Of a DNA stretch of 64,000 bases, positions 2,661 through 51,831 are shown piece after piece. Below the pieces are notes generated by a model, which was not told where the DNA came from, made no database searches, and saw only the letters and a list, made by a program, of their open reading frames with translations. Where the stretch lies: positions 3,571 to 67,570 of the forward strand of contig JASGMJ010000020.1 in NCBI GenBank assembly GCA_030156535.1. The letters are read 5' to 3'. Each line of letters opens with the position of its first letter. Positions within the stretch are counted from its first letter, which is position 1. The stretch is from Candidatus Sumerlaeota bacterium. GTDB lineage: Bacteria; Sumerlaeota; Sumerlaeia; SLMS01; JAHLLQ01. Position numbers and translations under genes: made by a program.

Positions 2661-3845
2661 CTACTCGTGGTCCCGATACGCTTCGTGACATGACTGACAG
2701 CTTTCCGCAAGGCCGAGCCATGCAGCGTCGGTGGCGGGTCTGTCGCCGCGGCCGAGCGCTTCGTCGAGTGCCTCGGCATTCGCACGCAGCGTCTCCATGT
2801 GGGTGCGGAAGTCTTCCTCGGCGGAGGGGTGGCTGCGCAGCCAGTCGCTTGCGTTGCGGGCAATCGTTCGCGCATCGAAGGCGGGCGTCGTGCCGATGGC
2901 CTCCGGCGCGGGAAGCCAACCGTACTCGCGCGCCGCGCGCAGCGAACGGAACGAGCCGTCGAGCTCGCGCATCCAATCGACGAGCGGCGCGTCGTCCGCC
3001 CGGTACGGGTACTCCTCCGGCACGGCCAGGGCATTCTCCATCGTGCGGTCGGCCAGCGGCGTCGTGGCGTCGTACCAATGCCCGACCTCGCCGCGCGAAA
3101 GCCCCAGCCGGTCGAGTAGAAGCAGGGCGCGGTTGCTCCCCCGCCCTTCCCAGAGATTGAGCGCCATCGCCGCAGGCGCGAATGCCCGGGGATCGCCCGG
3201 CCCGGCGTGAATGTAGAACGCCCCCAAATGCGTCGCGAGCGCCCCGATCAACTCGCTGTACTCCGCCGGGGAGAGACGCCCGGCAAGCGTCGGCACGTGA
3301 ACGTAATTCTGGAGGTTGGCGAGCGCGGCGGCCTGGTCCGGCGGAGCTGCATCCAGACTGATCAGCGTCAGCACCCGGTGCTGGCGGCGGAGAATCGCCA
3401 TCGCCTCGGGCGAGGGGGGGCCGTCGCCCACGTAGATGAACCGCCCCAGGTACCAGGCGTTCTCGATCCCCGGCAGGGTAATGCGCAGGGGCGGCGTGCT
3501 TTCCCGGGCGTCGGACGCCACGGCGCGTTCGAGCGCCACCTCGATGGCGCGCGGCGCGGGCACCAGATGGGCCGGCCACTCGAAATCGTACTCTGCACGC
3601 GCCACCGCCCCCGCCAGACAGGCGAGGAGCAGAAGAACGAGGGAGCGCAGCCGATGGGTCAAAGCTCGTGGGTCCGGCGGGGAGTTGTGCCGGACATCGG
3701 GCACCAACCACGGGGGAGGACGCAACCGGGAGTCGGCGGTCAGGGCGTTCCGGGCAGAATCTCCCGTTCTGCTTCGCTCGCCGCTCTTCGACTGGCGATG
3801 CCCGAAGGGAGGGGCTTTCGGCATGTTCCCTGAACCACAGGCCAC
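2661..3845 (-). CDS. periplasmic two-domain protein: N-terminal domain of unknown function fused to a C-terminal cytochrome c'-like (class II cytochrome c) domain with a CXXCH heme motif
   Basis: The C-terminus ...LAESCQSCHEAYRDHE matches the cytochrome c' C-terminal heme-binding signature (CxxCH followed by aromatic-Arg-Asp/Glu). A signal-peptide-like stretch HRLRSLVLLLLACLAGAVARA suggests the real start may be the TTG near 3662. 3845 is the first ATG of the ORF. Confidence 0.55.
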   Translation of the reverse strand: MACGSGNMPKAPPFGHRQSKSGERSRTGDSARNALTADSRLRPPPWLVPDVRHNSPPDPRALTHRLRSLVLLLLACLAGAVARAEYDFEWPAHLVPAPRAIEVALERAVASDARESTPPLRITLPGIENAWYLGRFIYVGDGPPSPEAMAILRRQHRVLTLISLDAAPPDQAAALANLQNYVHVPTLAGRLSPAEYSELIGALATHLGAFYIHAGPGDPRAFAPAAMALNLWEGRGSNRALLLLDRLGLSRGEVGHWYDATTPLADRTMENALAVPEEYPYRADDAPLVDWMRELDGSFRSLRAAREYGWLPAPEAIGTTPAFDARTIARNASDWLRSHPSAEEDFRTHMETLRANAEALDEALGRGDRPATDAAWLGLAESCQSCHEAYRDHE

Positions 3846-3866: not shown

Positions 3867-5198
3867 TCAGGCTTCCCGGCTTTCCTCGCCGCCTTCACCG
3901 ACATCGAAGGCGGGCACGGCGTCGCGCTGCTTCTCGCGGCGAATGTTGGCGCCGAGAGCCGCGAGCTTGCGCTCGAAGTGCTCGTAGCCGCGCTCCACGT
4001 GGTAGATGCGGCGAACCTGGCTCTCGCCGTGCGCCGCGAGCGCCGCCAGGGTCAGCGCCGCTCCGGCACGCAGGTCCGACGCCATCACCGGTGCGCCATC
4101 GTAGCGTTCCACGCCCCTGATGATTGCCCTGTTCCCCTTCTGACGGATGTTGGCGCCCAGGCGATTGAGCTCCTCAACGTGCATGAAGCGGTCCTGGTAA
4201 ATGCCTTCCTCCACGCGGGAAGTTCCGGGCGTCAGGCCCAGAAGCGTCACGAAGAGCGCCTGCACGTCGGTGGCAAGCTGGGGGTAGGGCCCGGTGGTGA
4301 GATCAAGTGGCTCGGGGTCGCGCGAGGGGCAGCGGCGCACGCGGATCGTGCGTTCCTCGTCGAGCAGCGTAATCTCCGCGCCCCAGCGCAAGAGCTCGCT
4401 CAGCGTCGCGCCCATGTGCGCGGCGGTGACATTCTTCATGACGATGTCGCCGTGGGTCAGCAGCGCGGCCGTGGCGAACGTCGCGGCCTCGATGCGATCG
4501 GGCATCACCGTCCAGTTGACGCCGTTGAGCGTCTTCACGCCATCGATCACCAGCGTGCTGCTGCCGAGCCCCGAAATCCGGGCTCCCATTGCGATCAGAA
4601 ACTCGCCAAGTTCCACGATTTCAGGCTCGCGCGCCGCGTCGTGGATGACCGTGCGTCCCTCCGCCAGCGTCGCCGCCATCAGGATGTTGCACGTCGCGCC
4701 CACCGACGGCCCGAAGGGCCCGGCCAGCGACATCTCCGCCCCCATCAGCCCGTCGTGCACGGCGTGGATGTAGCCGCCGCGCTCGTTCATGTGGACGCCG
4801 AGCGCGCGGAACCCCTTGAGGTGCAGATCAATCGGGCGGCTGCCGATGTTGCAGCCGCCGGGCTTGGAGACCGATGCGCGGTCCAGCCGTGCAATCATCG
4901 GCCCGAACGCGTACATCGACGCGCGCATCTGGCTCATCAATTCGTAGGGTACCCACGGCGTGTCGAACCCCGCCGGGTCGATCGTCATCCGCCCATTGGC
5001 GAACTCCGCGCGCACGTTCATGTGCTCGAGCACACTCTTCATCGAGCGAATGTCGCGCAGATCGGGGACATTCTCCAGCACCGTGGGCGTCTTGGCGAGG
5101 AGGGCCGCGCACATCAGGGGGAGGCAGGCGTTCTTCGATCCACTGATCGTCACCGTGCCGCGCAGGGGCTGGCCGCCTTGAATGACGTACATGTCCAT
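3867..5198 (-). CDS. murA: UDP-N-acetylglucosamine 1-carboxyvinyltransferase
   Basis: The N-terminus MDMYVIQGGQPLRGTVTISGSKNACLPLMCAALLA... is a strong MurA match along its length. It carries a ~25-aa C-terminal extension. Start set at the MDM ATG (5198); the upstream part of the ORF is low-complexity. Confidence 0.9.
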   Translation of the reverse strand: MDMYVIQGGQPLRGTVTISGSKNACLPLMCAALLAKTPTVLENVPDLRDIRSMKSVLEHMNVRAEFANGRMTIDPAGFDTPWVPYELMSQMRASMYAFGPMIARLDRASVSKPGGCNIGSRPIDLHLKGFRALGVHMNERGGYIHAVHDGLMGAEMSLAGPFGPSVGATCNILMAATLAEGRTVIHDAAREPEIVELGEFLIAMGARISGLGSSTLVIDGVKTLNGVNWTVMPDRIEAATFATAALLTHGDIVMKNVTAAHMGATLSELLRWGAEITLLDEERTIRVRRCPSRDPEPLDLTTGPYPQLATDVQALFVTLLGLTPGTSRVEEGIYQDRFMHVEELNRLGANIRQKGNRAIIRGVERYDGAPVMASDLRAGAALTLAALAAHGESQVRRIYHVERGYEHFERKLAALGANIRREKQRDAVPAFDVGEGGEESREA

Positions 5199-5460: not shown

Positions 5461-7689
5461 ATGGGCGTCTTTATTGAGATGCTGCGCCGGTTGGTGTACA
5501 CAATCTTCGAGTCGCTCTACCGCGTGGAGGCGGTGGGGCGCGAACGTCTGCCACGCGAAGGCGGCGCGGTGCTCGTGGCCAATCACCAGTCGTACCTCGA
5601 CGCCCTGCTGGTCATGTGGCTGGCCGGCCGCCCCGTGCGCTTTCTGGTCGCCGCGTCCATCATGCAGCGCTGGTGGGTGTGGCCGTTTGCAAAGCTGACC
5701 CGGGCGATCCCCATTGAACGCCATCAGGGGCCGCGCGCCCTGCTGAAGGCCCTGCAGGAGGCCCGCGATGAAGTCGCACGCGGCGGGCTCGTCGGGGTCT
5801 TTCCCGAGGGAGCGGTGACGCGCACGGGGACGTTGCTCCCCTTCCTGCGCGGCTACGAGAAAATCCTCCAGGGCACCGACGCCCCATTGATTCCGGTGGC
5901 CATTGACGGCACGGCGGAAACGGCGTGGGGACGGCTCGACGGCGCGGGGCCTTCGCTGCGCCCGCCCCGGCGCGGCTGGAAGACGCCGCTGCGCGTGGCC
6001 GTCGGCGAGCCCCTGCCCCCCGACCTGCGGCCTCCCGAACTGCGTCAGGAAATCGCCGAACTCCTGATCGAGGCCTTCGAGCTGCGGCGGCGCGAGGAAC
6101 GCCCGCTGCACGCGCTGGCCATCGCGCGCCTGCGCCGCCAGCCACTCGCCCGCCTGACGGGCGACCACGCCTCCCACGGCCCCGTGCCGAACTTCCGCCT
6201 GCTCGCGGGGCTCGTCGCGCTCGGCGAAAAACTCGCTCCCCATTATCGCGACGACGAGGCGATTGGCGTCATGCTGCCCCCGACGCTCGGGGGGATGCTG
6301 ACGAACATGGCGCTCGCCGCTGCCGGGCGCGTGTCGGTAAACCTGAACTACACGTCGTCCGCCCGCATCCTCGATGAAATCCGCGAGGAAGCCGGGGTGC
6401 GCCTGCTCATCACGTCGCGGGTCTTTCTGGAGAAGGCCAACGTCGCCCTCCCAGAGGGACTGGAGCTGCTCTACCTGGAGGACGTGCGCCACACGATCGG
6501 GCGGCTCGACCAATTGAAGGCGCTGGCCATTGGCCTGTTCGCCTCCGTGGAAACGATCGAGGAGCGCCTGGGCCGCACGACGCCCGCGTCACTCGACGAG
6601 ACCGCCGGCCTGCTGTACAGCAGCGGCTCGACCGGGCGCCCCAAGGGCATCCCTCTCACGCACTGGAACATGGTGGCGAACGTGCGCGCGGCCCTGCTTG
6701 CCATACGCCTCCCCGAGCACGCGCGCCTGCTCGGCGCCCTCCCCTTCTTCCATTCCTTCGGCTTCAACGTGGGCCTGTGGCTGCCGCTGCTTGGCGGCAT
6801 CGGCATCGCGTTCCATCCGAGCCCGCTGGACGCACGCGGCGTGGCGGAGTCCATTCGCACGAATCGCGTCACGCACCTGTTCGCAACGCCGTCGTTCCTG
6901 GGGCAGTACCTGCGCCGCGTGGACCCCGGCGACTTCGCGACGCTGGAGTACGTTGTCACCGGCGCAGAGAAGCTGCGCGACTCGATCGCCGACGCCTTCG
7001 AGGAGCGCTTTGGCATCCGCCCCGTCGAGGGCTACGGCTGCACCGAACTCGCCCCCATCGTCGCGCTCTCGGCCAACGATGCCCGCGGGCCGGGAGGCTT
7101 TCAGCGCGCCCACAAACCCGGCGCCGTCGGCGTGCCCATGCTCGGCGTCGCCGTGCGTTTCGCCGATCCCGAAACGGGCGAGCGCGTGCCCATCGGCAAA
7201 ACGGGTGCCTTGCTCGTCGCGGGACCCAACGTGATGGGAGGCTACTACGAACGGCCCGACCTGACGGAGCCGGTGCTCAAAGACGGATGGTACTCCACGG
7301 GCGACCTGGCGCATCTGGACAAGGACGGGTTCCTCCATATCACCGACCGCCTCAGCCGCTTTTCGAAGATCGCCGGCGAGATGGTGCCCCACGGCCGCAT
7401 CGAGGAAGCCCTGCAGGCCGCCGCCGGCGAAAGCGACCCGTGCTTCGCCGTCACGGGCCTGCCCGACGACCGCCGCGGCGAGAGACTGATCGTGCTCACC
7501 ACGTTGCCGCTCGAACGCGCGCGCCGCGCACTCGAAGCCCTGACGGACGAAATCTTCGACCTGCCAGGCCTCTGGATCCCCCGCGAACGCGACCTCCTGC
7601 CCGTCGAGGAAATCCCCGTGCTCGGCACGGGCAAGAAAGACCTCCAACGCATCCGCCAACTCGCACTCGATGCCCAGGCGCAGCAGTAG
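5461..7689 (+). CDS. aas: bifunctional 2-acylglycerophosphoethanolamine acyltransferase / acyl-ACP synthetase (Aas-like): PlsC-type acyltransferase domain fused to an AMP-binding domain
   Basis: The N-terminal half has acyltransferase motifs (VANHQSYLDALLV, FPEGAVTRTG). The C-terminal half has an AMP-binding signature (LLYSSGSTGRPKGIPLTHWN, YGCTE, TGDLAHLDKDGFLHITDRLSRFSKIAGEMV). Start at ATG 5461 (MGVFIEML). Confidence 0.8.
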   Translation: MGVFIEMLRRLVYTIFESLYRVEAVGRERLPREGGAVLVANHQSYLDALLVMWLAGRPVRFLVAASIMQRWWVWPFAKLTRAIPIERHQGPRALLKALQEARDEVARGGLVGVFPEGAVTRTGTLLPFLRGYEKILQGTDAPLIPVAIDGTAETAWGRLDGAGPSLRPPRRGWKTPLRVAVGEPLPPDLRPPELRQEIAELLIEAFELRRREERPLHALAIARLRRQPLARLTGDHASHGPVPNFRLLAGLVALGEKLAPHYRDDEAIGVMLPPTLGGMLTNMALAAAGRVSVNLNYTSSARILDEIREEAGVRLLITSRVFLEKANVALPEGLELLYLEDVRHTIGRLDQLKALAIGLFASVETIEERLGRTTPASLDETAGLLYSSGSTGRPKGIPLTHWNMVANVRAALLAIRLPEHARLLGALPFFHSFGFNVGLWLPLLGGIGIAFHPSPLDARGVAESIRTNRVTHLFATPSFLGQYLRRVDPGDFATLEYVVTGAEKLRDSIADAFEERFGIRPVEGYGCTELAPIVALSANDARGPGGFQRAHKPGAVGVPMLGVAVRFADPETGERVPIGKTGALLVAGPNVMGGYYERPDLTEPVLKDGWYSTGDLAHLDKDGFLHITDRLSRFSKIAGEMVPHGRIEEALQAAAGESDPCFAVTGLPDDRRGERLIVLTTLPLERARRALEALTDEIFDLPGLWIPRERDLLPVEEIPVLGTGKKDLQRIRQLALDAQAQQ

Positions 7690-30153: not shown

Positions 30154-32091
30154 ATGAAGATTCAGGTTCTTCCTCAGATGCTCATCAACCAGATCGCCGC
30201 CGGCGAAGTGGTGGTGAACATGGCGAGCGTCGTGAAGGAACTCGTGGAGAACTCCATCGACGCGGGGGCGACGCGCATCGAGGTCGAGCTGGGCAACGAG
30301 CTGCGCGATGTTTCGATCGCGGACGACGGCGTGGGGATGGCGCGCGAGGACGCGGAGCTTTGCCTCCAGCGCCATGCGACGTCGAAGATACGCACTCCCG
30401 AGGACTTGTTCCGCCTGGCCACGCGCGGCTTTCGCGGAGAAGCCGTGCCGTCGATCGCGTCAGTGAGCCGTGTCGAGATTCGCACGCGCCCGGCGGAGGA
30501 CCTCGCGGGCACGCGGCTCGTCGTCGAAGGCGGGACGATCGAGACCATCGAATCGGTTGGCTGCCCGGCGGGAACGCGCATTTCTGTGCGCGACCTGTTC
30601 TTCAACACGCCGGCGCGCCTGAAGTTCCTGAAGAGTTCGACGTCGGAGATGAACGCGATCTTGCAGACGGTGGTGCGCCAGGCGCTTGCCGTGCCCGCGA
30701 TTGGATTCCGCATCGTTCGCGATGGTGAAGTGCGGCTGGACCTGCCGAGCGGGCAGAGCCTGGCCGACCGCTTCCTGACGCTGTCGGGCTCGCGCGTGAG
30801 CGGCACGCTGCTCGAACTTTCCTTCGAGCGCGAAGGCGCCGCGGTTTCCGGGCTTCTGGCAAATCCACAAAGCAGCCGTGGCGACCGGCGTTCACAGTAC
30901 CTGTTCGTCAACGGACGCCCCTTCGGCAACAAGGCCATCGGCTCGTCGATCGAGCAGGCGTGCCGGGGCTTCATCATGACGGGGCGCTTTCCCATCTTTT
31001 GCGTTTTCATCACGGTGCCGCCCGGCGATGTGGACATCAACGTGCATCCGACGAAGGAGGAGGTGCGCTTTCGCAACGAGCGCAACGTCGCCGGTGCCTG
31101 CTATCACGCGGCGCGCGTGGCTCTCGAAGCGCATGGCTTTGTCCCGGAGATGCACCTCGATGGTGATGCGCCCCCGTCTGCGCCGACGACCGGCGAAGCA
31201 ACGGAGCAGCCTCCGAGAATATTCGGGATGGAGCAAGCCGCGCTGCGCCCCGACTCCATCCGCATGAGCACGCCACTGGACCTTGTCTCGCGCGCGTTCG
31301 AGCGCAAGCGTGCGCGCGAAGCCCAGGAAGCCCAGGAGGGCGCGAGGGCGTTCGCGCCGGATGGCCAGCCGGTCGCACCCGCCTTTGCCCCCGCGATCGA
31401 TCCGTATTTGCCGCGCGAGTCCCCCTCTTCAACGCCGCCGCAACGCCGTTCGCTTCCGCCCGTCGCGGCCGGGCCGGGCGAGAAACCCGATCCAGAGTTC
31501 TGGGACAAGCCGTTCGATCCCGAGCCACTCGGTCAGATTGCAGAGACCTACGTCGTCGCGCGCTTCGGCGAGGACCTGCTGCTCGTGGACCAGCACGCCG
31601 CGCACGAGCGCCTGCGGTTTCTTGAACTCACGGCGCGCCAGGGCCAGACCGCCTCGCAGACGCTGCTCGTCCCCGTGACGTTCGACGTGGCCGCCGACCG
31701 CACGGAGGTGCTCGAAGCGCTGCTTCCCGAATTGGCGGCGATGGGCTTTGCCGTCGAGCCGTTTGGCGGCGCGACGTGGGCGGCGACGGCCGTCCCGAGC
31801 GATCTCGCCAAGGCCGACGTGGCCGCGCTTCTCACCGATCTGCTCGATGAGTTCGAGGACGCACCGCGTGTGAACCGCGTTGCCGACGCGCGCGAACGCA
31901 TTCTGGTGCGCGCGGCGTGCCACTCGTCCATTCGCGCGGGGCATCGCCTGAGCCACGAGGAGATGCAGGCGCTGCTCGATCAGATGCGCGCGTGCCGACT
32001 TTCGTTCACGTGTCCCCACGGGCGCCCAACAATCATCCGGCTGGCCAAGTCCGAACTGGACCGGCGCTTCGGACGGTTGGGCGCACATTAG
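30154..32091 (+). CDS. mutL: DNA mismatch repair protein MutL
   Basis: GHKL ATPase N-terminus (QIAAGEVVxxxASVVKELVENSIDAGAT, DDGVGM, GFRGEAVPSIASVS) and the C-terminal dimerisation domain. Confidence 0.92.
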   Translation: MKIQVLPQMLINQIAAGEVVVNMASVVKELVENSIDAGATRIEVELGNELRDVSIADDGVGMAREDAELCLQRHATSKIRTPEDLFRLATRGFRGEAVPSIASVSRVEIRTRPAEDLAGTRLVVEGGTIETIESVGCPAGTRISVRDLFFNTPARLKFLKSSTSEMNAILQTVVRQALAVPAIGFRIVRDGEVRLDLPSGQSLADRFLTLSGSRVSGTLLELSFEREGAAVSGLLANPQSSRGDRRSQYLFVNGRPFGNKAIGSSIEQACRGFIMTGRFPIFCVFITVPPGDVDINVHPTKEEVRFRNERNVAGACYHAARVALEAHGFVPEMHLDGDAPPSAPTTGEATEQPPRIFGMEQAALRPDSIRMSTPLDLVSRAFERKRAREAQEAQEGARAFAPDGQPVAPAFAPAIDPYLPRESPSSTPPQRRSLPPVAAGPGEKPDPEFWDKPFDPEPLGQIAETYVVARFGEDLLLVDQHAAHERLRFLELTARQGQTASQTLLVPVTFDVAADRTEVLEALLPELAAMGFAVEPFGGATWAATAVPSDLAKADVAALLTDLLDEFEDAPRVNRVADARERILVRAACHSSIRAGHRLSHEEMQALLDQMRACRLSFTCPHGRPTIIRLAKSELDRRFGRLGAH

Positions 32092-42300: not shown

Positions 42301-43962
42301 ATGGCCGAATCGAAAGCGCAGCGGATTCTGATCGTTGGTGGAGTCGCCGGAGGAGCGTCGTGCGCCGCGCGCCTGCGCCGCATGGATGAGTTCGCCGAAA
42401 TTGTCGTCTTCGAGAAAGGCCCGTATGTTTCCTTCGCCAATTGCGGCCTGCCGTACCACACGAGCGGGGTCATCAAGGAAGAGGCGAGTCTGCTGCTCGC
42501 CACGCCGGAGAAGTTTCGCGCCCAGTTCAACATCGACGTGCGTACTCACTTTGAAGTGACGGGTATCGACCGCGCCGCGAAAACCGTCGAAGTGACCAAC
42601 ACCCAGACGGGCGAGGTAACGACGGAAGCCTACGACAAGCTGGTGCTCTCGCCCGGGGCCGAGCCGATCCGCCCGCCGCTGCCGGGGATCGATCTTCCGG
42701 GCATTTTCACGGTGCGCACCGTGCCCGACGCGCGGGCGATCCGCGAGTGGATCGACACGAAGAAGGTTCGCCGCGCCGTGGTGATCGGCGGCGGATTCAT
42801 TGGCCTCGAAATGGCCGAAAACCTCGCGCATCGCGGGATTGCCTGCACGTTGATCGAACGTCTGCCGCAGGTCATGCCCCCTGCGGACGAGGAAATGGTC
42901 CGGCCGCTGCAGGCGCACCTGCGCGAGAAGGGAATCGACCTGCGTCTGGAAACGTCGGTGACGGGTTTCGAGCAGCGCGCCGACGGTCTGGTGGTGACGA
43001 CGGACAAGGGCGATGTCCCCGCAGCCGGGCTGGCGATTCTCGCCATCGGGGTCAAGCCGCTGACGGATCTGGCCCGCGAGGCGGGACTGGCTCTGAATGC
43101 ACGCGGAGCCATCAAGGTCGATGAGCACATGCGTACCAGCGACCCCGACGTTTACGCGATCGGCGACGCGGTGGAAACGATCAACGTGGTGACGGGCAAG
43201 CCTGGTCTGTTGCCGCTGGCGGGCCCGGCCAATCGCCAGGGGCGTCTGGTGGCGGATCATCTTGCGGGACGGGCCGACGCGCGCTTTCGCGGCGTGCAGG
43301 GTACGTCGGTCGTCGGCGTGTTCGATCTGACGCTGGCGCAGACGGGGCCGAGCGAGCGGCAGCTTCGTGCCGAAGGCGTGGCATGCGAGAAGGCGTACCT
43401 TTTCCCCGGGCACCACGTCGGGTATTACCCCGGTGCGGAACCGATCTATTTCAAGCTGCTCTTTGCGCCGGGTGACGGGCGCGTGCTCGGCGCGCAGGCG
43501 GTCGGCAAGGCGGGAGTGGAGAAGCGCATCGACGTCATTGCGATGGCGATTCAGATGAAGGCCACCGTGTTCGATCTCGAAGAGGCCGAGTTGTGTTATG
43601 CGCCGCAGTATGGCGCGGCCAAGGACCCCGTGAACATGGCAGCGTTCATCGCGGCCAACCATCTGCGGGACGAGTCGCCGATCGTCCATTGGGAGGCGCT
43701 GGAAACGACGGCGTCCCGGCCGGTGCTGCTCGACGTGCGCAACCCGGACGAAATCGCCGGGGGCGTACTGGAAGGCACCGTGGTCATTCCGCTGCCTGAA
43801 CTGCGCGCACGCCTGGGCGAACTTCCGCAGGACCGGCCGCTGTGGGTGATTTGTGGCATCGGCCAGCGCTCGCACTATGCCGTGCGCCTCCTGCGCCAGA
43901 AGGGCTTCGACGCGTACTACCTCAGCGGCGGCTGGAAGATGAAAAACGTGCTGGGCGGATAG
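42301..43962 (+). CDS. CoA-disulfide reductase-type pyridine nucleotide-disulfide oxidoreductase with a C-terminal rhodanese domain
   Basis: FAD motif ILIVGGVAGGASCAARL, redox Cys in SFANCGLPY, NAD motif VVIGGGFIGLEMAE, and a C-terminal rhodanese-like region with a Cys loop (VICGIGQRS). Confidence 0.85.
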   Translation: MAESKAQRILIVGGVAGGASCAARLRRMDEFAEIVVFEKGPYVSFANCGLPYHTSGVIKEEASLLLATPEKFRAQFNIDVRTHFEVTGIDRAAKTVEVTNTQTGEVTTEAYDKLVLSPGAEPIRPPLPGIDLPGIFTVRTVPDARAIREWIDTKKVRRAVVIGGGFIGLEMAENLAHRGIACTLIERLPQVMPPADEEMVRPLQAHLREKGIDLRLETSVTGFEQRADGLVVTTDKGDVPAAGLAILAIGVKPLTDLAREAGLALNARGAIKVDEHMRTSDPDVYAIGDAVETINVVTGKPGLLPLAGPANRQGRLVADHLAGRADARFRGVQGTSVVGVFDLTLAQTGPSERQLRAEGVACEKAYLFPGHHVGYYPGAEPIYFKLLFAPGDGRVLGAQAVGKAGVEKRIDVIAMAIQMKATVFDLEEAELCYAPQYGAAKDPVNMAAFIAANHLRDESPIVHWEALETTASRPVLLDVRNPDEIAGGVLEGTVVIPLPELRARLGELPQDRPLWVICGIGQRSHYAVRLLRQKGFDAYYLSGGWKMKNVLGG

Positions 43963-44036
43963 CAGGCCGCACTTGCTCTCCCCAACCGTTTTGGCTTCAC
44001 TCACGCATCCACTTTTTCTCAAAAGGAGGGAGTGCG

Positions 44037-44399
44037 ATGCTGGAGGAGGAACTGACGCGGCGAATCATCAAGTGCTGTATTGATGTGTCCAATGAGTTGG
44101 GCGCTGGGTTTATGGAAGGTGTCTACCACAGCGCCCTTCTCTTCTGTCTGCAGGATGAGGGACTCGTTGTTGAGTCTGAACGGCCGCTCGACGTGTACTT
44201 CAGAGACCGGCTGGTGGGCCGGTTCTTCGCCGACCTGGTTGTGGAGGAAAAGATCATCCTCGAACTCAAGGCCGTGGACACGATTCTGCCGGCACACACG
44301 GCCCAGTTGCTCAATTATCTCAGGGCAACTGAACTGAAGATCGGCCTGCTTGTGAACTTCGGAACCCCAAGGGTTCAATGGAAGCGGCTTGTTTGTTGA
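44037..44399 (+). CDS. GxxExxY-family protein (PD-(D/E)xK nuclease-like fold)
   Basis: 120 aa with ELGAGFMEGVYHSAL (GxxExxY) and the D...ExK-like arrangement (FADLVVEEKIILELKAV). AAAGGAGGG lies 7 nt upstream of the ATG. Confidence 0.68.
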   Translation: MLEEELTRRIIKCCIDVSNELGAGFMEGVYHSALLFCLQDEGLVVESERPLDVYFRDRLVGRFFADLVVEEKIILELKAVDTILPAHTAQLLNYLRATELKIGLLVNFGTPRVQWKRLVC

Positions 44400-46140
44400 A
44401 TCCATCAGTATTCGGATGCCTTGCCCGGCCACGCATCCGTGTCCATCCGTCATTATCCGCTCTTCATCCGTGGTAGCCGGTTGCCGTCGGCGTGCGGCGC
44501 TCGTGCGCGGCGAAGGGGAAAGCATACCACGGATAAGGGAAGGATAAGAACCGATGCACACGGATTGCTGAGGGCCAACCGCCCATCCGTGTTCATCCGT
44601 CGTTATCCGTCGTTCATCCGTGGTAGCCGGTTGCCGTGGGCGTGCAGCACCCGGACGCGGCGAAGGGGAAAGTAGACCACGGATAAGGGAAGGATAGGTC
44701 CCGATGCACACGGATTGCTGAGGCCCACCCGCCCATCCGTGTCCATCCGGCGTTATCCGTCGTTCATCCGTGGGAGCCGGTTGCCGTGGGCGTGCAGCAC
44801 CCGGACGCGGCGAAGGGGAAAGTAGACCACGGATAAGGGAAGGATAGGTCCCGATGCACACGGATTGCTGAGACCCACCCGCCCATCCGTGTCCATCCGT
44901 CATTATCCGCTCTTCATCCGTGGGAGCCGGTTGCCGTGGGCGTGCCGATCCCGGACGCGGCGAAGGGAAGAGCATACCACGGATAAGGGAAGGATAAGTA
45001 CCGCGATGCACACGGATTGCTGGGGTCCAACCGTTCATCCGTGTCCATCCGTCATTATCCGCTGTTCATCCGTGGTAGTCGGTTGCCGTGGGCGTGCGGC
45101 GCTCGTGCGCGGCGAAGGGGAAAGCATACCACGGATAAGGGAAGGATAGGTCCTGATGCACACGGATCCTGGGGCCCAACCGCCCATCCGTGTCCATCCG
45201 CCGTTATCCGCTGTTCATCCGTGGTAGTCGGTTGCCGTGGGCATGCGGCGCCCGGACACGGCGAAGGGAAGAGCATACCACGGATAAGGGAAGGATAAGA
45301 ATCGATGCACACGGATCCTGGGGCCCAACGCGCCCATCCGTGTCCATCCGTCGTTGTCCGTCGTTCATCCGTGGTAGTCGGTTGCCGTCGGCGTGCGGCG
45401 CCCGGACGCGGCGAAGGGGAAGAGCAAACCACGGATAAGGGAAGGATAAGAACCGATGCACACGGATACTGGGGCCCAACCGCCCATCCGTGTTCATCCG
45501 TCGTTATCCCCCGTTCATCCGTGGAAGTCGGTTGCCGTGGGCATGCGGCGCCCCGGACGCGGCGAAGGGAAGAGCATACCACGGATAAGGGAAGGATAGG
45601 TCCTGATGCACACGGATCCTGGGGCCCAACGCGCCCATCCGTGTCCATCCGCCGTTATCCGCTGTTCATCCGTGGTAGTCGGTTGCCGTGGGCATGCGGC
45701 GCCCGGACGCGGCGAAGGGAAGAGCATACCACGGATAAGGGAAGGATAAGAACCGATGCACACGGATACTGGGGCCCAACATGCCCATCCGTGTCCATCC
45801 GACGTTATCCGTCGTTCATCCGTGGTAGTCGGTTGCCGTGGGCGTGCAGCACCCGGACGCGGCGAAAGGGAAAAGCATACCACGGATAAGGGAAGGATAC
45901 GTCCGGATACACACGGATATTGAGGTCCAACCGCCCATCCGTGTTCATCCGCCGTTATCCGCCGTTCATCCGTGGTAGTCGGTTGCCGTGGGCGTACAGC
46001 GCTCGGACGAGCCGAAGGGGAAAGCATACCACGGATAAGGGAAGGATAGGTCCGGATGCACACGGATTGCTGGGGTCCAACCGTTCATCCGTGTCCATCC
46101 AACGTGATCCGTTGTTCATCCCTGGTAGTCGGTTGCCGTG
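44400..46140. repeat. tandem array of ~11.6 copies of a ~150-bp unit (periods 149-152 bp, ~85-95% identity), each unit an imperfect ~40-bp inverted repeat flanking a ~55-nt GC-rich loop
   Basis: Unit starts (CATCCGTG...) fall at 44434, 44585, 44734, 44884, 45036, 45185, 45335, 45485, 45636, 45786, 45936 and 46086 (the last truncated). The left arm carries 3-4 copies of ATCCGT. The right arm carries CACGGATAAGGGAAGGATA..CACGGAT, which is its reverse complement. The core ACCACGGATAAGGGAAGGATA is invariant in all units. Frame-shifting indels between units argue against coding. Confidence 0.9.
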
Positions 46141-46252
46141 AGGCACCGAGCCACCGGCCAGGCGTTGGCCCGCTCCTTGCCCGACCTGACGTTCCTGTTG
46201 TCGGCAGGCCGTGGTGCACCGACACTGGTGGCCAAGGAGCACGCTCACCCGC

Positions 46253-48370
46253 ATGACCCATCCGGCACGCGAAAACAGGTTCCTCAACTCCGTGGAAATG
46301 CGCGAGCGCCGCACCGTGCTCCGCTCCATGCCCTATTCCGTGCAGCTTGAGGTCACCACCAAGTGCAATCTGGCGTGCATCATGTGCGCCCGCGACAAGT
46401 ACCACGGCCGCGGCGAAGACCTGGCAGACGACATTCTCGACCCCGTCCTCGACCAAATCCTCCCCACTGCCCAGGACATCATCGTCTCCTCGTTCGGCGA
46501 GCCACTGCTCTACCCACGCTTTCGCGACATCCTGCTCAGGATCGAACCGGACTCCGGGCTCCAGCTCGGCTTCTTCACGAACCTGCTGCTGCTCACCGAG
46601 GAGATGGCCGAGGAACTCGTCAAACGCGGCGCCGCCTACGTGAACGCCTCGATCGATGGCGCGAGCAAGGAGACCTACGAGCGCATCCGCGCCGGAGGAA
46701 AGTGGGAGACGCTGCTCGAAAAAATCGAGCTGCTCAATGCCGTCAAGCGCCGCCACAATTCCTCCACGCCGCACCTGAACCTGTGCGTCGTCGGTTCGAC
46801 GCTCAACATCGACGAGACGGCCCTGTTCGTCGAGTTCGCCCGCGCGCACGGTTTCGACTCGGTGAAGTACAACCCCAACCTGTACGTCGACGACGAGGAG
46901 ATGGACTACCTCTCGCTCGTTCACGAGCAGGAGAAAACCGTCCGCCAGTTCCGCGTGGGCTACCAGCGCGCGCTCGAACTCGACCTGCACACCAACTACC
47001 ACCAGAAGCCCTACCGCGTGGCCTCCGCGCCCGGACCGATTCCACGCCAGGCGTCGCACTGGACAATTTTCATCAATCGCCTCAAGCGTCTCTATCGTAC
47101 GCGGCTCGGATGGCGGCTGGAGAACAACTGGAACCAGTCCGGTGGCATCCCCCGCCACTTCGTGACGCTGGCGCTGCGCAAGGCCGGCAACCTCACGCTC
47201 AACGCGATTCCCGTCTACGGCTGGAAGCGCCGCGTCGAGCACCCCATCCCGCACGTCATTCCCAACGACGCGCCGCCCCGTTCCTGCGGCAACGCCTGGA
47301 CGCATGTGCACGTCAAGTCCGACGGCCTGGTCTACCCGTGCTGCTTCTCCGATGAAGTGATGGGCGACTTGCGCAAGCAGTCGTTCGCGGAAATCTGGAA
47401 CGGCGAGAAGTACCAGGATTTGCGCCGCTCGCTCACGTCCGGCAACTACTGGGCAAGCTGCCGCAAGGCGAGCTGCAACTGGGTGGAGGGCGGGAAGTCC
47501 AGCGAGTACGGCTGCCGGATCGAGCTGACCGGCGCGGTCGAGTCATTCGATGGAAGCGCGGGCGCGGAGATTCCCGTGCGCATTGCGAACACCGGGCGGT
47601 TTCGCTGGCGTCCGCCCGAGCACAAGGGCGTCACGCATCGCAACTACGTGGCGCTGGCGTACCGCCTGTTCAACGCGCGCAACGAACTGATCGACGAGGG
47701 TGGGCACGTTCCGATTCCGCGCGCCGTCAAGCCGGGCGATTCCATTGAGATGACGCTCGCCGTGAAGCCCGTTCGTTTCGGCGGACCCGTGCGGCTGAAG
47801 ATCGACATGGTTCACGAAGGCATCACCTGGTTCGGCGAACGCGGAAACAATGCGCGCGACGTGGAACTCAACGTGGTGAACGTTCCCTTTGCCGCCTACG
47901 TGGGCGTGACGAACAAGGCGCTGGTGAAGCAACTGCTGGCCGGGCCGCTGATTCCCGGCGAGCGTTTCGAGCTGCCGCTGAAAGTGCGCAACGTGGGGAC
48001 GGAGACGTTGGGCGCGCTGCCGGAGACGGATTTCGTTTCCTGTCACTGGCGCGACGCGACGGGCGAAATCGTCGAGTGGGAAGGGCTGAGGGCCACGCTG
48101 AACACGCCGTTGGAGCCCGGCGGGGAATGCGCCGTCGCACTCACCGTCGAAGTCCCGCGCGGCATCGAACCCGGCACCTGCCAACTGGAGATCGACCTCG
48201 TGCGCGAGGATCAGGAATGGCTGAGCCTGGCGTGGGGGCGGCCGTTGCTGGCGTGGCGCGTGGAAGTCGAGGAGCGCGCAGCCGATGAAGAAAAACGCGC
48301 TCCCATGCAGCCTGCCGCCGAGGCGTTTGGCCAGTGCGCCGCCAACACCGGCAGCAAGGGCATCTGGTAG
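46253..48370 (+). CDS. radical SAM/SPASM-domain protein fused to two C-terminal beta-sandwich (Ig/CARDB-like) domains
   Basis: CxxxCxxC (TKCNLACIMC) ~20-35 residues from the start, and SPASM-type Cys clusters (CGNAWTHVHVKSDGLVYPCCF, C..C..C). The last ~280 aa are two ~110-aa repeats with a beta-sandwich-like pattern. The start may instead be the ATG at 46298. Confidence 0.78.
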   Translation: MTHPARENRFLNSVEMRERRTVLRSMPYSVQLEVTTKCNLACIMCARDKYHGRGEDLADDILDPVLDQILPTAQDIIVSSFGEPLLYPRFRDILLRIEPDSGLQLGFFTNLLLLTEEMAEELVKRGAAYVNASIDGASKETYERIRAGGKWETLLEKIELLNAVKRRHNSSTPHLNLCVVGSTLNIDETALFVEFARAHGFDSVKYNPNLYVDDEEMDYLSLVHEQEKTVRQFRVGYQRALELDLHTNYHQKPYRVASAPGPIPRQASHWTIFINRLKRLYRTRLGWRLENNWNQSGGIPRHFVTLALRKAGNLTLNAIPVYGWKRRVEHPIPHVIPNDAPPRSCGNAWTHVHVKSDGLVYPCCFSDEVMGDLRKQSFAEIWNGEKYQDLRRSLTSGNYWASCRKASCNWVEGGKSSEYGCRIELTGAVESFDGSAGAEIPVRIANTGRFRWRPPEHKGVTHRNYVALAYRLFNARNELIDEGGHVPIPRAVKPGDSIEMTLAVKPVRFGGPVRLKIDMVHEGITWFGERGNNARDVELNVVNVPFAAYVGVTNKALVKQLLAGPLIPGERFELPLKVRNVGTETLGALPETDFVSCHWRDATGEIVEWEGLRATLNTPLEPGGECAVALTVEVPRGIEPGTCQLEIDLVREDQEWLSLAWGRPLLAWRVEVEERAADEEKRAPMQPAAEAFGQCAANTGSKGIW

Positions 48371-48371
48371 A

Positions 48372-49106
48372 TTAGGCTGCGGCCGTCACCATGCGGACGA
48401 AGGCGTCTTCGAGATCTTCGCCGTGGCGCTCGCGCAGGCCGTCGAGCGTTCCCTCGTAGAACAGCCGTCCCTGATGAATGATGCCGACCGTGTCGCACAG
48501 GCGTTCGACGTCGGGCATGATGTGCGTGGAGAAGAGGATCGTCTTGCCGGCGTCGCGCTGGGTGCGAATGAAGGTGACGATGGTTCGGCTGGAGAGGACG
48601 TCGAGCCCGGCAGTGGGTTCGTCGAGAATGAGCACGGGGGGATCGTGCACGACGGTGCGCGCGATGTTCACGCGCTGCTTCATGCCGGTGGAGAGCTTGT
48701 CGCAGGGGCGGTCGAGAAACGCGCCGAGATCAAAGAGCACGGCGAGATCGGCGATGCGCGTCTCCAGCGGTTCCTTCTCCATGCCGTTCAGACGGCCGAA
48801 ATAGCGTAGCACCTCGCGCGCCGTCAGGCGGCCGTACAATCCCGTGTTGGCGGAAAGAAAACCGATGCGCGTACGGACGCCCGCGGGGTTTGCGGCCACG
48901 TCGATGCCATCGACCAGTGCCGTTCCCGAAGTGGGGCGCAACGCCGTGGAGATCAGGCGCAACGTCGTCGTCTTGCCCGCACCGTTCGGCCCCAACAGCC
49001 CGAAGACCTTGCCGGGCTGGCAGGTGAATGAGACCTCGGAAACGGCGTTGATCGCGCCGCGACGCCGGTCGCGGAAGGATTTGGTGAGCAAACGTGCTTC
49101 GATCAT
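48372..49106 (-). CDS. ABC transporter ATP-binding protein (no adjacent permease gene)
   Basis: Walker A GPNGAGKTT, Q-loop, signature LSTGMKQR, Walker B ILDEPTAGLD, H-loop. Confidence 0.88.
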   Translation of the reverse strand: MIEARLLTKSFRDRRRGAINAVSEVSFTCQPGKVFGLLGPNGAGKTTTLRLISTALRPTSGTALVDGIDVAANPAGVRTRIGFLSANTGLYGRLTAREVLRYFGRLNGMEKEPLETRIADLAVLFDLGAFLDRPCDKLSTGMKQRVNIARTVVHDPPVLILDEPTAGLDVLSSRTIVTFIRTQRDAGKTILFSTHIMPDVERLCDTVGIIHQGRLFYEGTLDGLRERHGEDLEDAFVRMVTAAA

Positions 49107-49131
49107 GGAGTCGCTACCGTGAAGCGCGGGG

Positions 49132-51831
49132 TTACATCTGGGGTTTCTGGATGATGTCGCTGGTGCGCAGGCGGGTGAGCTGGGTCAGGCCGGAAGCGCT
49201 GACGTCGGCGGCATAGCCTTCGCCCTCGGTGACGGGCAGGGAACGCCATTCGACGCGGCGGCCGCCAGCGATATCGTTGAGGCAGCGGAACCGGAAGGCC
49301 GCCATGAGCTGTTCCTTCATCAGGCCCGGCTGGATCTCGACGTTCACCCAGACTTCGCGGCTGGGCCAGATGTCGAAGGCATTGTCGAAGCGCACGCGGG
49401 CGGCGGGCAGGTTCTCGAAGCCAATTTCGACGCCGCGCACGACGTTCTGGGCGCGCACCTGGAAGATGGCGCGGCGGCTGCCGACAACGCAGTCGAGCAT
49501 GACGTCGAGGCGGGGCTCGGGAAGGGAAACGGACTTGGGCGCCACGGGCTGGTACATCCGCGCGGAGAGCACCTGCTTGCCGCTGATGAGTTCACCGACG
49601 ACGACGGCGCTCTCGGGATTCGTGATGCGCAGGGTGTCCAGACTGAAGAGGCCGATCTCGGTCTTGCCGTTGGCGGGCAGCGTCAGGTTGTGGTCGTACC
49701 AGTCGAGCAGCTCGCCGTCGAGCGTGTAGGACTTGAGGCGGCAGATCAGCTCCATGTCGCGCTCCCACCCGGGGCCGTCGTGGACGGCAACGGCACGGAA
49801 CCCCGTGTCGGCGTCGAGCAGGATGAGCGAGACGGGGGCGTAGGCATCGCGCACGGCCCAGTAGGCCAGCTTGGGCCGGGTCTTGTAGTCGAGCAGCGAG
49901 GCCGAAATTCCGGGCCAGCAATCGTTGAAGTGCCAGAGGATGGCGCCCATCGTCTCGGGCTTGTTGGCGCGCCAGGTGTCGATGGCCAGGGTGAGCGCCT
50001 GGGCCTGGGTCCACTGGCTGAGGTAGATCAGCTCGTCGAATGTCTCGGGGGGGCGGGTGCGGCTGATGACGTATCGGAAGAGGCGGCCGGTGCCGTCCTG
50101 TTGCTTGAGATGGGACTCGAAGTCGGAGTGGTTGAGGCTCTTCTCCTCGGCGCTCGTCCAACTGCGGACGGTTTCACGGTGCGGCAGCGCCATGAAATCG
50201 AAGCGGGAAACGAAGCGGGCGCGCACGTCACGGTAGGCAAGTTCGGGTTCCCAGTTTTCCCAGACGCCCAGATAGTGATGGTCGCCCTGGTTCTCGCTGT
50301 TGGGGTCTTCGCCGCCGGAGGGCGAGGAAGTCCAGTAGGGACGATGGGGATCGAAGGTTTCAATGACGTGTGGCAGGAGACGGGTGAAGATTTTGCGGCC
50401 GGGCTGCTTGGTGCTGTTCTGGGTGGCGCGGTGGTGCATCCAGTCGTTGGCGTCGTTGCCGCACCACAGGACGATGCTGGGGTGATTGCGCAGGCGCTTG
50501 ATCTGGGCGCGTGCCTCTTCCTGGACGCTGTTCCAGAACTCCTTGGTTTCGGGGTGGTCGCCCTGGGCGAACATGAAGTCCTGCCAGACCATGATGCCGA
50601 GTTCGTCGCAGCGGCGGTAGAACGCCTCGGATTCGTAGACGCCGCCGCCCCAGACGCGCAGGAGGTTGATGTTTCCGGCGGCGGCGAGATCGAGCATCCG
50701 GCGGACGGCGTCGTCGGTGACGCGGCCGGGAAGAACATCCGGAGGAACCCAGGTGGCGCCGCGCGCGAAGACGGGCTGGCCGTTGATGCGGATTTCAAAG
50801 CCGCCCTGCTTGTTGGCCTCGCCGACGTTGAGTTCGACCTTGCGCAGGCCGAAGACGGTTTCCTGCTCGTCGAGCACATTGCCCTCGTGGCGCAGGACGA
50901 CGCGGGCGCGGTAGAGAGCGCGGCGCCCCGTGCCGATGCCATGCGGCCACCACAGGACCGGGTCGTTGATGACGACGCGCTCGCTGTAGCGGAACTTGCC
51001 CGGCTTGATTTCCAGCGGCTTGCTCTTGTCCAAAATGACTTCGCTGGCGTAGTTCGTCCCCGATCCGACGGGGTCGAGACGCTCGACGGTCGTCTGGACG
51101 TCGAGGTTCAGCGCGCCAAGGGCCTCGATTTCGGATTCGACGTCGATCTTGGCCTCGGCCGTGGAGAGCGACTTGATGGGAACGGCGAGCGAACCGAGGC
51201 GGGCGCCGGTGGTGTGGCGGACAATGACAGGACCCCAGAAGCCACAGCCTGAGAGACGCGGAGCCATGCTCCAGCCCGTGAGCATCTGGGCGCGGCGGGC
51301 GTAGACCCGGGTGCGGTCGAAGGCGGCGCGAAGCTGGCCGTTCTGCATTTCGAGGGCAGCGCAGCGGCGGGCGGCGGGCTCGAAATGCACGTAGAGCACG
51401 TTCTCGCCCGCGCGGATGGCGCCCGAAACGTCGATGGTCAATGGCACAAACTGGTTGGACGACTGGCCGATGTAGTGGCCGTTGAAGTAAATCTGGGCGA
51501 AGGTTTCGAGGGATTCGAACTCGAGCTCGAAGCGGTGCCCTTCGGCGTGCAGATGGTGCTGCCACTCCTCGGGCATGAGGAAGTTGGTCTTGTAGAGGAA
51601 ATCCTGGGACTCGACGGCGTAGGATTTCTTCTCGTTATTCGAAAAGAACGGGTCTTCCAACTTGCCCGCAGCCATGAGGTGGCCATGGACGCTGCCGGGA
51701 ATCAGGGCGGGCTCCCAGCCTTCGCGGGAGAGCTGGGCAGGGAGACGCCCGGCGGAGAAGTCCGCCATTTCCGCTGGTTCCACGGCGCGGAAGCGCCAGT
51801 TGCGCTCGAGGACGAATGCACGCTCGGCCAT
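49132..51831 (-). CDS. glycoside hydrolase family 2 protein, beta-mannosidase-like
   Basis: 899 aa with GH2 sugar-binding, Ig-like and TIM-barrel regions (NHPSIVLWCGNDAND..., WQDFMFAQ, catalytic-region motifs). Architecture and length are as in bacterial beta-mannosidases. Confidence 0.78.
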   Translation of the reverse strand: MAERAFVLERNWRFRAVEPAEMADFSAGRLPAQLSREGWEPALIPGSVHGHLMAAGKLEDPFFSNNEKKSYAVESQDFLYKTNFLMPEEWQHHLHAEGHRFELEFESLETFAQIYFNGHYIGQSSNQFVPLTIDVSGAIRAGENVLYVHFEPAARRCAALEMQNGQLRAAFDRTRVYARRAQMLTGWSMAPRLSGCGFWGPVIVRHTTGARLGSLAVPIKSLSTAEAKIDVESEIEALGALNLDVQTTVERLDPVGSGTNYASEVILDKSKPLEIKPGKFRYSERVVINDPVLWWPHGIGTGRRALYRARVVLRHEGNVLDEQETVFGLRKVELNVGEANKQGGFEIRINGQPVFARGATWVPPDVLPGRVTDDAVRRMLDLAAAGNINLLRVWGGGVYESEAFYRRCDELGIMVWQDFMFAQGDHPETKEFWNSVQEEARAQIKRLRNHPSIVLWCGNDANDWMHHRATQNSTKQPGRKIFTRLLPHVIETFDPHRPYWTSSPSGGEDPNSENQGDHHYLGVWENWEPELAYRDVRARFVSRFDFMALPHRETVRSWTSAEEKSLNHSDFESHLKQQDGTGRLFRYVISRTRPPETFDELIYLSQWTQAQALTLAIDTWRANKPETMGAILWHFNDCWPGISASLLDYKTRPKLAYWAVRDAYAPVSLILLDADTGFRAVAVHDGPGWERDMELICRLKSYTLDGELLDWYDHNLTLPANGKTEIGLFSLDTLRITNPESAVVVGELISGKQVLSARMYQPVAPKSVSLPEPRLDVMLDCVVGSRRAIFQVRAQNVVRGVEIGFENLPAARVRFDNAFDIWPSREVWVNVEIQPGLMKEQLMAAFRFRCLNDIAGGRRVEWRSLPVTEGEGYAADVSASGLTQLTRLRTSDIIQKPQM

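Follow-up and report, generated by a model that had tools for sequence, protein, structure and literature searches.

The 64,000-nt stretch of DNA analysed here (the window) comes from Candidatus Sumerlaeota bacterium (assembly GCA_030156535.1, contig JASGMJ010000020.1, positions 3,571–67,570 of the forward strand). It contains a 1.7-kb tandem array of ~150-nt foldback units, located between a small gene of the GxxExxY (PDDEXK_3) family and a gene for a radical SAM/SPASM protein. Tandem Repeats Finder placed the array at 44434–46140, with a period of 150, 11.4 copies, 89% matches and a score of 2453. The locus is organized as follows.

42301–43962, + strand: gene for a coenzyme A (CoA)-disulfide-reductase-like flavoprotein with a rhodanese domain (Pfam); upstream neighbour, outside the element
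44037–44399, + strand: GxxExxY/PDDEXK_3 gene, 120 aa (PF13366, TIGR04256), with the upstream ribosome-binding site AAAGGAGGGAG
44400–44433, + strand: junction of 34 nt between the GxxExxY stop codon and the first arm
44434–46140, + strand: tandem array of 11 full foldback units and a truncated unit 12 (Tandem Repeats Finder, unit table, pattern searches and alignments)
44434–44473, + strand: ATCC-type arm of unit 1, CATCCGTGTCCATCCGTCATTATCCGCTCTTCATCCGTGG, with four ATCC cores at offsets 2, 12, 22 and 33
44474–44526, + strand: GC-rich spacer of unit 1, 53 nt, with a small apical hairpin according to folding and alignment
44527–44567, + strand: GGAT-type arm of unit 1, CCACGGATAAGGGAAGGATAAGAACCGATGCACACGGATTG, the first 20 nt of which are identical in 11/11 units
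44568–44583, + strand: inter-unit linker of unit 1, 16 nt, the most variable part of the unit
44434, 44584, 44734, 44884, 45036, 45185, 45335, 45485, 45636, 45786 and 45936: first positions of the 11 full units
46086–46140: truncated unit 12, consisting of the ATCC arm followed by the first part of the spacer
46253–48370, + strand: gene for the radical SAM/SPASM protein (Pfam, NCBIfam); downstream neighbour, outside the element

The first arm begins 35 nt past the stop codon of the GxxExxY gene, which is the sole member of its family in the window, and the native leader of the radical SAM gene starts near 46190. All units follow the same plan: an ATCC-type arm of 40 nt, a GC-rich spacer of ~53 nt, a GGAT-type arm of 41 nt and a linker of 15–17 nt. 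The 20-mer core CCACGGATAAGGGAAGGATA is present in 11 perfect copies spaced by 149–152 nt and nowhere else in the 64 kb, its expected count in shuffled sequences being 0.00. Symmetry between the two arms is limited to the ATCC/GGAT cores, which are spaced by 10, 10 and 11 nt; the sequences between the cores differ from one arm to the other. Whichever strand is folded, each unit is predicted to form a long imperfect hairpin (−64 to −70 kcal/mol, z −2.6 to −4.5). An earlier note on this DNA, prepared from the letters alone, had described a head-to-tail array of hairpin-forming units with a period of 149–152 bp, a core identical in every copy and a variable loop, flanked by the two genes named above. 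This description stands, including the quoted loop variants and both flanking genes, with 11.4 copies in place of 11.6, except that the arms are not simple inverted copies of each other. The note's count of about 90 ATCCGT/ACGGAT hexamers has to be reduced: there are 55 exact ones (33+22), or ~5 per unit, and eight per unit are reached only when variants with one mismatch are included. In nine of the 12 units (44473–46143) the spacer opens with GTAG and then a small GC-rich hairpin, and in the other three GGAG or GAAG takes the place of GTAG; the tetranucleotide recalls the GTAG tag of repetitive extragenic palindromic (REP) elements.

The array is real non-coding repetitive DNA, as the earlier note had held. 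Each of the six reading frames is interrupted by at least eight stop codons, and variable columns are distributed over the three codon positions as 20/16/12 (p=0.37), so that codon periodicity is not seen. Pairs of units differ by point changes only (5–34 per 150 nt). Unlike CRISPR arrays, in which repeats alternate with unique spacers, the array consists wholly of 150-nt repeated sequence and contains no unique spacer, again in line with the note. Scanning the window against Rfam yielded no matches at the gathering threshold and only chance-level ones at E≤10; no tRNA or tmRNA was found, promoter- and terminator-like sites were not in excess over expectation, and a BLAST search of plasmids with two of the units gave no match. 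We also considered whether the units might encode precursors of ribosomally synthesized and post-translationally modified peptides (RiPPs) for the neighbouring radical SAM/SPASM enzyme. This idea was rejected, since the open reading frame (ORF) starting with ATG is not conserved between units (MHTDC* in some, 23 aa in others), codon periodicity is missing and every frame contains stops. The NCBI locus tags skip from PWP23_2299 (the nuclease) to PWP23_2301 (the radical SAM protein) over the span 44400–46252; one ORF within the array, PWP23_2300, has therefore presumably been annotated as a protein, and is almost certainly spurious.

Variation is distributed very unevenly along the unit. Whereas 17 of the 18 linker columns are variable (13/14 + 4/4), only 20/55 spacer columns and 16/81 arm columns are (8/40 in the ATCC-type and 8/41 in the GGAT-type arm), and every variable arm column falls between the cores. 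The earlier note had proposed looking for covariation between the arms; among the window units none of the 41 predicted pairs displays a compensatory double change, the variation being confined to loops. Invariant cores combined with the lack of compensatory pairs make short conserved sites, and not a selected stem, the probable object of constraint. Opposed arm positions include 23 G·T wobble cells when read on the + strand versus one on the − strand, albeit in ~5 columns only, and no A·C oppositions occur in loops. A sense-strand bias of this kind is weak (104 vs 79) across the 69 GxxExxY loci described below.

Judged by its sequence, the GxxExxY protein is a minimal Cas4/RecB-like PD-(D/E)xK nuclease with intact catalytic residues. 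Searches of PADLOC and of PDB sequences with this protein gave no match. The family is large, a single query retrieving 1,645 cluster matches at E≤1e-10, and has been listed as 'Unknown', with multiple transfers between divisions (PMC3424549). We collected 80 loci from metagenomes in which a relative of the nuclease (46–58% identity) is encoded, 69 of which are non-redundant, and searched for inverted repeats between the 220 nt upstream and the 260 nt downstream of each gene, accepting only those that scored above all 20 shuffles. Significant bracketing repeats were found at 62 of the 69 loci (median score 40 vs 22), compared with 10/69 for control ORFs from the same loci (median 18). The arms are built of three to four direct sub-repeats of 9–11 nt with a lineage-specific core; there are three cores per arm in 111/119 cases, and their spacing is 9 nt in 221/248. 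By our estimate from the counts, the density of clusters of three GGAT/ATCC cores is about ten times as high up to 250 nt from the gene as beyond 600 nt. The earlier note had correctly identified the GxxExxY gene but treated it as mere context; because such arms enclose nearly every member of the family, the gene is instead the key to the array.

The core sequence changes from lineage to lineage: ATCCGT/ACGGAT in the window, and ACAGGAT, AGGGGAT, CACGGAT, ACATGGAT, CAGAGGAC and others elsewhere. An example of an arm pair surrounding a metagenomic GxxExxY gene is TTAACAGGATGGACAGGATAAGCAGGATAA ... ATCCTGCTTACCCTGTCCATCCTGTT. Both the motif variant and the arrangement of the arms track the protein cluster. 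In 22 loci the gene lies within the palindrome (GGAT arm–gene–ATCC arm), and in 11 it is located between outward-facing ends (ATCC arm–gene–GGAT arm). Equivalent arms are found in the genomes of isolates, namely Bacteroides finegoldii (CAGAGGAC cores) and Treponema saccharophilum (ACACGGAT), and two viral or prophage loci share the layout, with cores (CGCAAAAG and ACACGAAAG) of quite another sequence, viral contigs having yielded only two relatives of the nuclease. Some database proteins carry read-through tails, e.g. HPAHPVHPV, which are translated arms, so that annotations gain spurious ORFs and C-terminal extensions from these repeats. Rfam identified nothing in the 14 related loci scanned except an unrelated thiamine pyrophosphate (TPP) riboswitch. 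As for the window array, it lies less than ~250 nt from a GxxExxY gene, possesses inverted arms with at least three sub-repeats (the pattern of three ATCC cores was detected in 11 units) and is made of gene-less tandem units within the 130–180-bp range. At the level of sequence, the comparison shows that it belongs to a widespread repeat architecture accompanying GxxExxY genes.

On a plasmid of Fusobacteria bacterium ZRK30 (L147; CP102406, ~31377–31751) the GxxExxY gene is flanked by direct rather than inverted copies of a ~50-nt unit, AATCAGTGAAAA..CAGAG..ATCAGA..TAATCCGTG.ACCTA, and is thus an exception to the inverted-arm rule. At locus L094 (6102–6858) an ORF of 180 aa (6322–6864), for which neither NCBIfam nor PADLOC gave a match, has a GGAT arm on one side and an ATCC arm on the other, and may represent a different cargo within the same type of bracket.

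Comparison of occupied and empty sites suggests that the arms and the gene travel together. At locus L125, a block of ~445 bp, TTTTTACAGGGATATACAGGATGAACAGGATAA–gene–TTCATCCTGTTTATCCTGTCTATCCCTGTAAAAAA, is inserted between two opp-type permease genes, starting 4 nt past the stop codon of the first and ending 4 nt before the ATG of the next. The orthologous operons at L141/L142 (permeases 93% identical) and L143/L144 (89%) have spacers of 26 and 21 nt, respectively, and lack both the arms and the gene. Since L125 is occupied and the orthologous sites are empty, the arms and the gene behave as a single insertable block, and sequence comparison of these sites shows that arm–gene–arm blocks are gained or lost as units. 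A third relative (81%; L145) carries other palindromes at the same site, 368 nt in length (2133–2500), with the sequences GTTATCTGCGG...CCGCAGATAAC and TTATCCGGTTTATCCGG; the inter-permease site may be a recurrent landing place. The empty-site spacer at L141 (2475–2500), CTTTTCCAGGAATAAAC, resembles the element terminus at L125 (3955–3975), TTTTTACAGGGA. This resemblance could reflect a target preference for core-like or Shine-Dalgarno-like sequence, or chance.

Arm–spacer–arm units without a gene occur singly or in tandem arrays adjoining GxxExxY genes, and the earlier note's opinion that arrays like the one in the window are rare in bacterial chromosomes does not apply to this class, as similar arrays were retrieved at several loci, both by gene and by DNA pattern. 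Their periods are 134 at L069, 155 at L108 and ~180 at L039, L048 and L004, the last three being contained in one metagenome-assembled genome (MAG) of Planctomycetaceae; a further array is present at L109. At L039, which shares the CACGGAT variant with the window, one array unit has a GxxExxY homologue (41% identity) in the exact place of its 8-nt apical loop, and array sequence continues on both sides of the gene. L109 (metagenome contig Ga0314774_1003854, 1–5360) is a 5.4-kb island with two GxxExxY genes (998–1378 and 4555–4965), at least seven gene-less foldback units and, at 3057–3537, a RelB/ParE-like pair that was recognized by reading the translations only, not by a family-library scan. 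A DNA pattern scan (TCATCCGTGG-N50-80-CCACGGATAA) of one genome per species returned 52 loci, including some chance matches in coding DNA, and revealed several Planctomycetota MAGs with many hairpin copies containing at least two CATCCGTG cores per arm.

Among the relatives fetched from other Sumerlaeota, orthologues of the radical SAM protein (69–55% identity) are preceded by neither the array nor the nuclease gene. The closest of them (L135, 69% identity) retains the downstream ATP-binding cassette (ABC) gene and a homologous leader of ~60 nt; its intergenic region measures 160 nt and contains no array. Since both gene and array are absent at this site in the closest relative, they look like an insertion specific to one lineage, and not like a conserved leader. 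The idea that the array serves the radical SAM gene as a riboswitch or conserved leader was rejected because the orthologues lack it.

Taken together, these data lead us to favour, with moderate confidence, the explanation that the array consists of gene-less foldback units, clustered in tandem and belonging to a widespread family of GxxExxY-linked, inverted-repeat selfish elements. The units would be either non-autonomous derivatives, comparable to miniature inverted-repeat transposable elements (MITEs), or empty targets of a selfish cassette, with the nuclease or a partner recognizing the conserved periodic cores. The protein might act at the dyad centre, either on duplex DNA or on an extruded hairpin or cruciform. 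The array could have grown by unequal recombination or slippage between units, while interaction with the protein would have preserved the cores; the expanding minisatellite suggested in the earlier note thus describes how the array may have grown, but not what its units are. Effects on the host, such as 3′ hairpins on mRNAs or a barrier between the two genes, would be secondary. A bolder proposal, which we put forward only tentatively and regard as possible rather than probable, is that a GxxExxY gene and its arms of periodic sub-repeats constitute an undescribed minimal selfish element, whose single 120-aa nuclease would recognize its own palindromic flanks, as duplex or cruciform, and spread both cassettes and gene-less copies, the latter then accumulating in tandem arrays like the present one. 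As to the route of mobility, the arrival of the arms together with the gene at L125 suggests transposition, whereas the placement of the gene at either dyad centre (at L039, and in the 22:11 split) suggests homing.

Several observations weigh against this explanation. In the window, the GxxExxY gene is at the edge of the array with arms on the downstream side only, so that it is not itself bracketed, and the arms have four cores at 10–11 nt instead of the three at 9 nt usual elsewhere. The similarity to the unit is not significant for the 34-nt junction (70/500 shuffles score as well) or for the 97 nt upstream of the gene (75/500); the idea that the gene resides within a degenerate 'unit 0' was rejected on these grounds. 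Location of the gene at either dyad centre (22 vs 11 loci) does not fit a classical transposon with terminal inverted repeats, and no target-site duplication is definable in the comparison of L125 with L141/L143. Certain insertions are of long standing and stable: L060, L107 and L114 have their locus in common at 86–89% nucleotide identity. Only 2/52 of the pattern-fetched loci, many of which are chance matches, hold a GxxExxY gene, and most single hairpins in the Planctomycetota loci are away from any such gene. The co-variation of motif and protein is confounded with host phylogeny. Finally, PF13366 is listed as being of unknown function, our literature searches turned up no activity for a GxxExxY protein, and, to our knowledge, there is no precedent for a 120-aa nuclease core alone acting as a mobility enzyme.

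Of the roles suggested in the earlier note, an array of protein-binding sites fits best, in view of the invariant cores, their 10–11-nt period, the variable spacers and the lack of covariation. If the sites were bound by a host protein unrelated to the nuclease, as in a centromere, an insulator or a nucleoid-organizing site, then the spacing would place ~90 sites on one helix face within 1.7 kb. However, the architecture follows the GxxExxY gene across phyla while the core sequence changes, no partition or replication gene is present among the five array-neighbouring genes scanned (42301–51831), and none of the relatives fetched has the array in front of its radical SAM orthologue; a host protein as the partner is accordingly improbable. 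Absence from these relatives would suit a neutral, decaying minisatellite left over from past amplification and devoid of present activity, as would the truncated last unit and the 5–34 differences between units. The unevenness of the divergence, with a 20-nt core identical in 11 units and 16/81 variable columns in the arms versus 17/18 in the linker, nevertheless requires selection or biased conversion, and we consider such a remnant quite unlikely. A role at the RNA level is unlikely as well. The array might share a transcript with the GxxExxY gene or form the leader of the radical SAM mRNA, its hairpins working in the manner of REP/BIME elements (shielding mRNA ends or damping read-through) or as tandem small RNAs; the three genes and the array all have + orientation and no terminator-like site separates them, the hairpins are stable, and the G·T wobble pairs of the window favour the + strand (23 vs 1, in ~5 columns, with no A·C opposition in the loops). 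Against this, Rfam matches to the repeat are absent here and in the 14 related loci, there is no excess of promoter-like sites, compensatory changes were seen in none of the 41 pairs, variation being found in loops, the wobble bias is weak over the 69 loci (104 vs 79), and the radical SAM orthologues lack the array. The earlier suggestion of a structured non-coding RNA hence receives no support beyond that weak + strand bias.

A resemblance to integrons also had to be considered, namely to a run of attC-like sites without cassettes (a cluster of attC sites lacking an integron integrase, CALIN). Some related loci (L068, L071 and L109) display a hairpin–gene–hairpin order in direct orientation, the RelB/ParE-like pair of L109, as read from translations, is of a kind often found in chromosomal integrons, and termini at some related loci resemble RYYYAAC/GTTRRRY. 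The ends of the window units, by contrast, lack RYYYAAC...GTTRRRY boxes, the arms contain three to four boxes where attC sites have two (R and L), the gene lies within the palindrome at 22 loci, and there are no ORFs between the window units, all of which renders this assignment very improbable, although no screen of the window for an integron integrase was made. Lastly, the array could be an artefact or chimera of assembly. In the Logan short-read assembly of SRR23823798, which contains identical flanking genes (the flavoprotein gene call there being 553 aa), contigs are broken 30 nt from the start of unit 1 and within unit 11, and the interior consequently rests on one assembly. Since both junctions are reproduced, the Logan contigs corroborate the edges of the array, though not its copy number; in addition, each unit is individually distinct and arrays of the same type are present in other assemblies. 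An artefact is therefore hardly credible, and the breaks illustrate a practical effect of such repeats on assembly.

The preferred reading, a cluster of gene-less units from a GxxExxY-linked element, invites comparison with known mobile systems. REP sequences, bacterial interspersed mosaic elements (BIMEs) and REP doublets forming hairpins (REPINs), together with REP-associated tyrosine transposases (RAYTs), are short extragenic palindromes found both dispersed and in tandem clusters, with a repeat-flanked gene of the single-copy type, and occupy intergenic positions without disrupting genes (PMC3733652). Repeats of the GxxExxY-linked family are similarly dispersed and tandem extragenic palindromes that leave genes intact and whose linked gene is itself repeat-flanked. 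However, REP elements, which reach hundreds of copies per genome, are 20–40 nt long, whereas the present units measure 150 nt with arms of three to four periodic sub-repeats; RAYTs are HUH (Y1) tyrosine transposases, whereas the gene linked to the present repeats encodes a PD-(D/E)xK, Cas4-like nuclease; and the REP tag, GTAG or CGTC, is terminal, whereas here GTAG is found in the spacer of 9/12 units rather than at the arm end. Inverted arms around one small gene, gene-less miniatures and polymorphism at orthologous sites are shared with insertion sequences (ISs), their MITEs and foldback transposons. The construction of the arms from tandem sub-repeats is reminiscent of foldback elements, and equally of the ends of Tn7 and Mu with their several sites for transposase binding. 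The present element differs from the IS/MITE pairs in having no known transposase fold or definable target-site duplication, in the location of its gene either inside or outside the palindrome, and in its tandem arrays, which are unusual for MITEs.

Free-standing homing endonuclease genes likewise are single small nuclease genes acting as selfish inserts at the centre of a dyad-symmetric site, which the gene would thereby split, with many empty sites in the same genomes; in L125, however, the arms moved with the gene into an armless site, and PDDEXK_3 is not a recognized homing family. Integron attC sites are imperfect palindromes of 60–150 nt that separate small ORFs and, like the present units, probably fold as single strands, but the R/L box pattern and the intervening ORFs are both missing from the window array. 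With CRISPR loci the array shares regularly spaced palindromic repeats beside a Cas4-like nuclease gene, and is set apart by its fully repeated 150-nt period devoid of unique spacers and by the lack of cas genes among the five scanned neighbours. No description of the pairing between repeat and gene turned up in the literature, whether searched with the repeat sequence, with GxxExxY/PF13366/TIGR04256 or with PF05635/four-helix-bundle, which is not proof of its absence. The GxxExxY family probably lives as selfish DNA in the manner of REP/RAYT or MITE/IS pairs, but with a Cas4-like nuclease at its base, and the periodic palindromic arm, as a reproducible DNA partner, offers the family a testable candidate substrate.

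The DNA pattern scan also brought up two further dispersed repeats. Pirellulaceae JTS MAGs (L007, L012, L013, L034, L035, L049 and L052) contain a ~160-nt element in many copies per genome; none of these loci has a GxxExxY gene, and conservation extends well past the CATCCGTGG hairpin. A separate palindromic repeat of ~130 nt, gttagccgacaggcTCATCCGTGGGACGCCGTAAATACGTCCC...CCCACGGATAAccctgtcgcctgac, is dispersed over seven contigs (L001, L021, L022, L026, L037, L044 and L051) of MAG113, a genome labelled Pseudomonadota.

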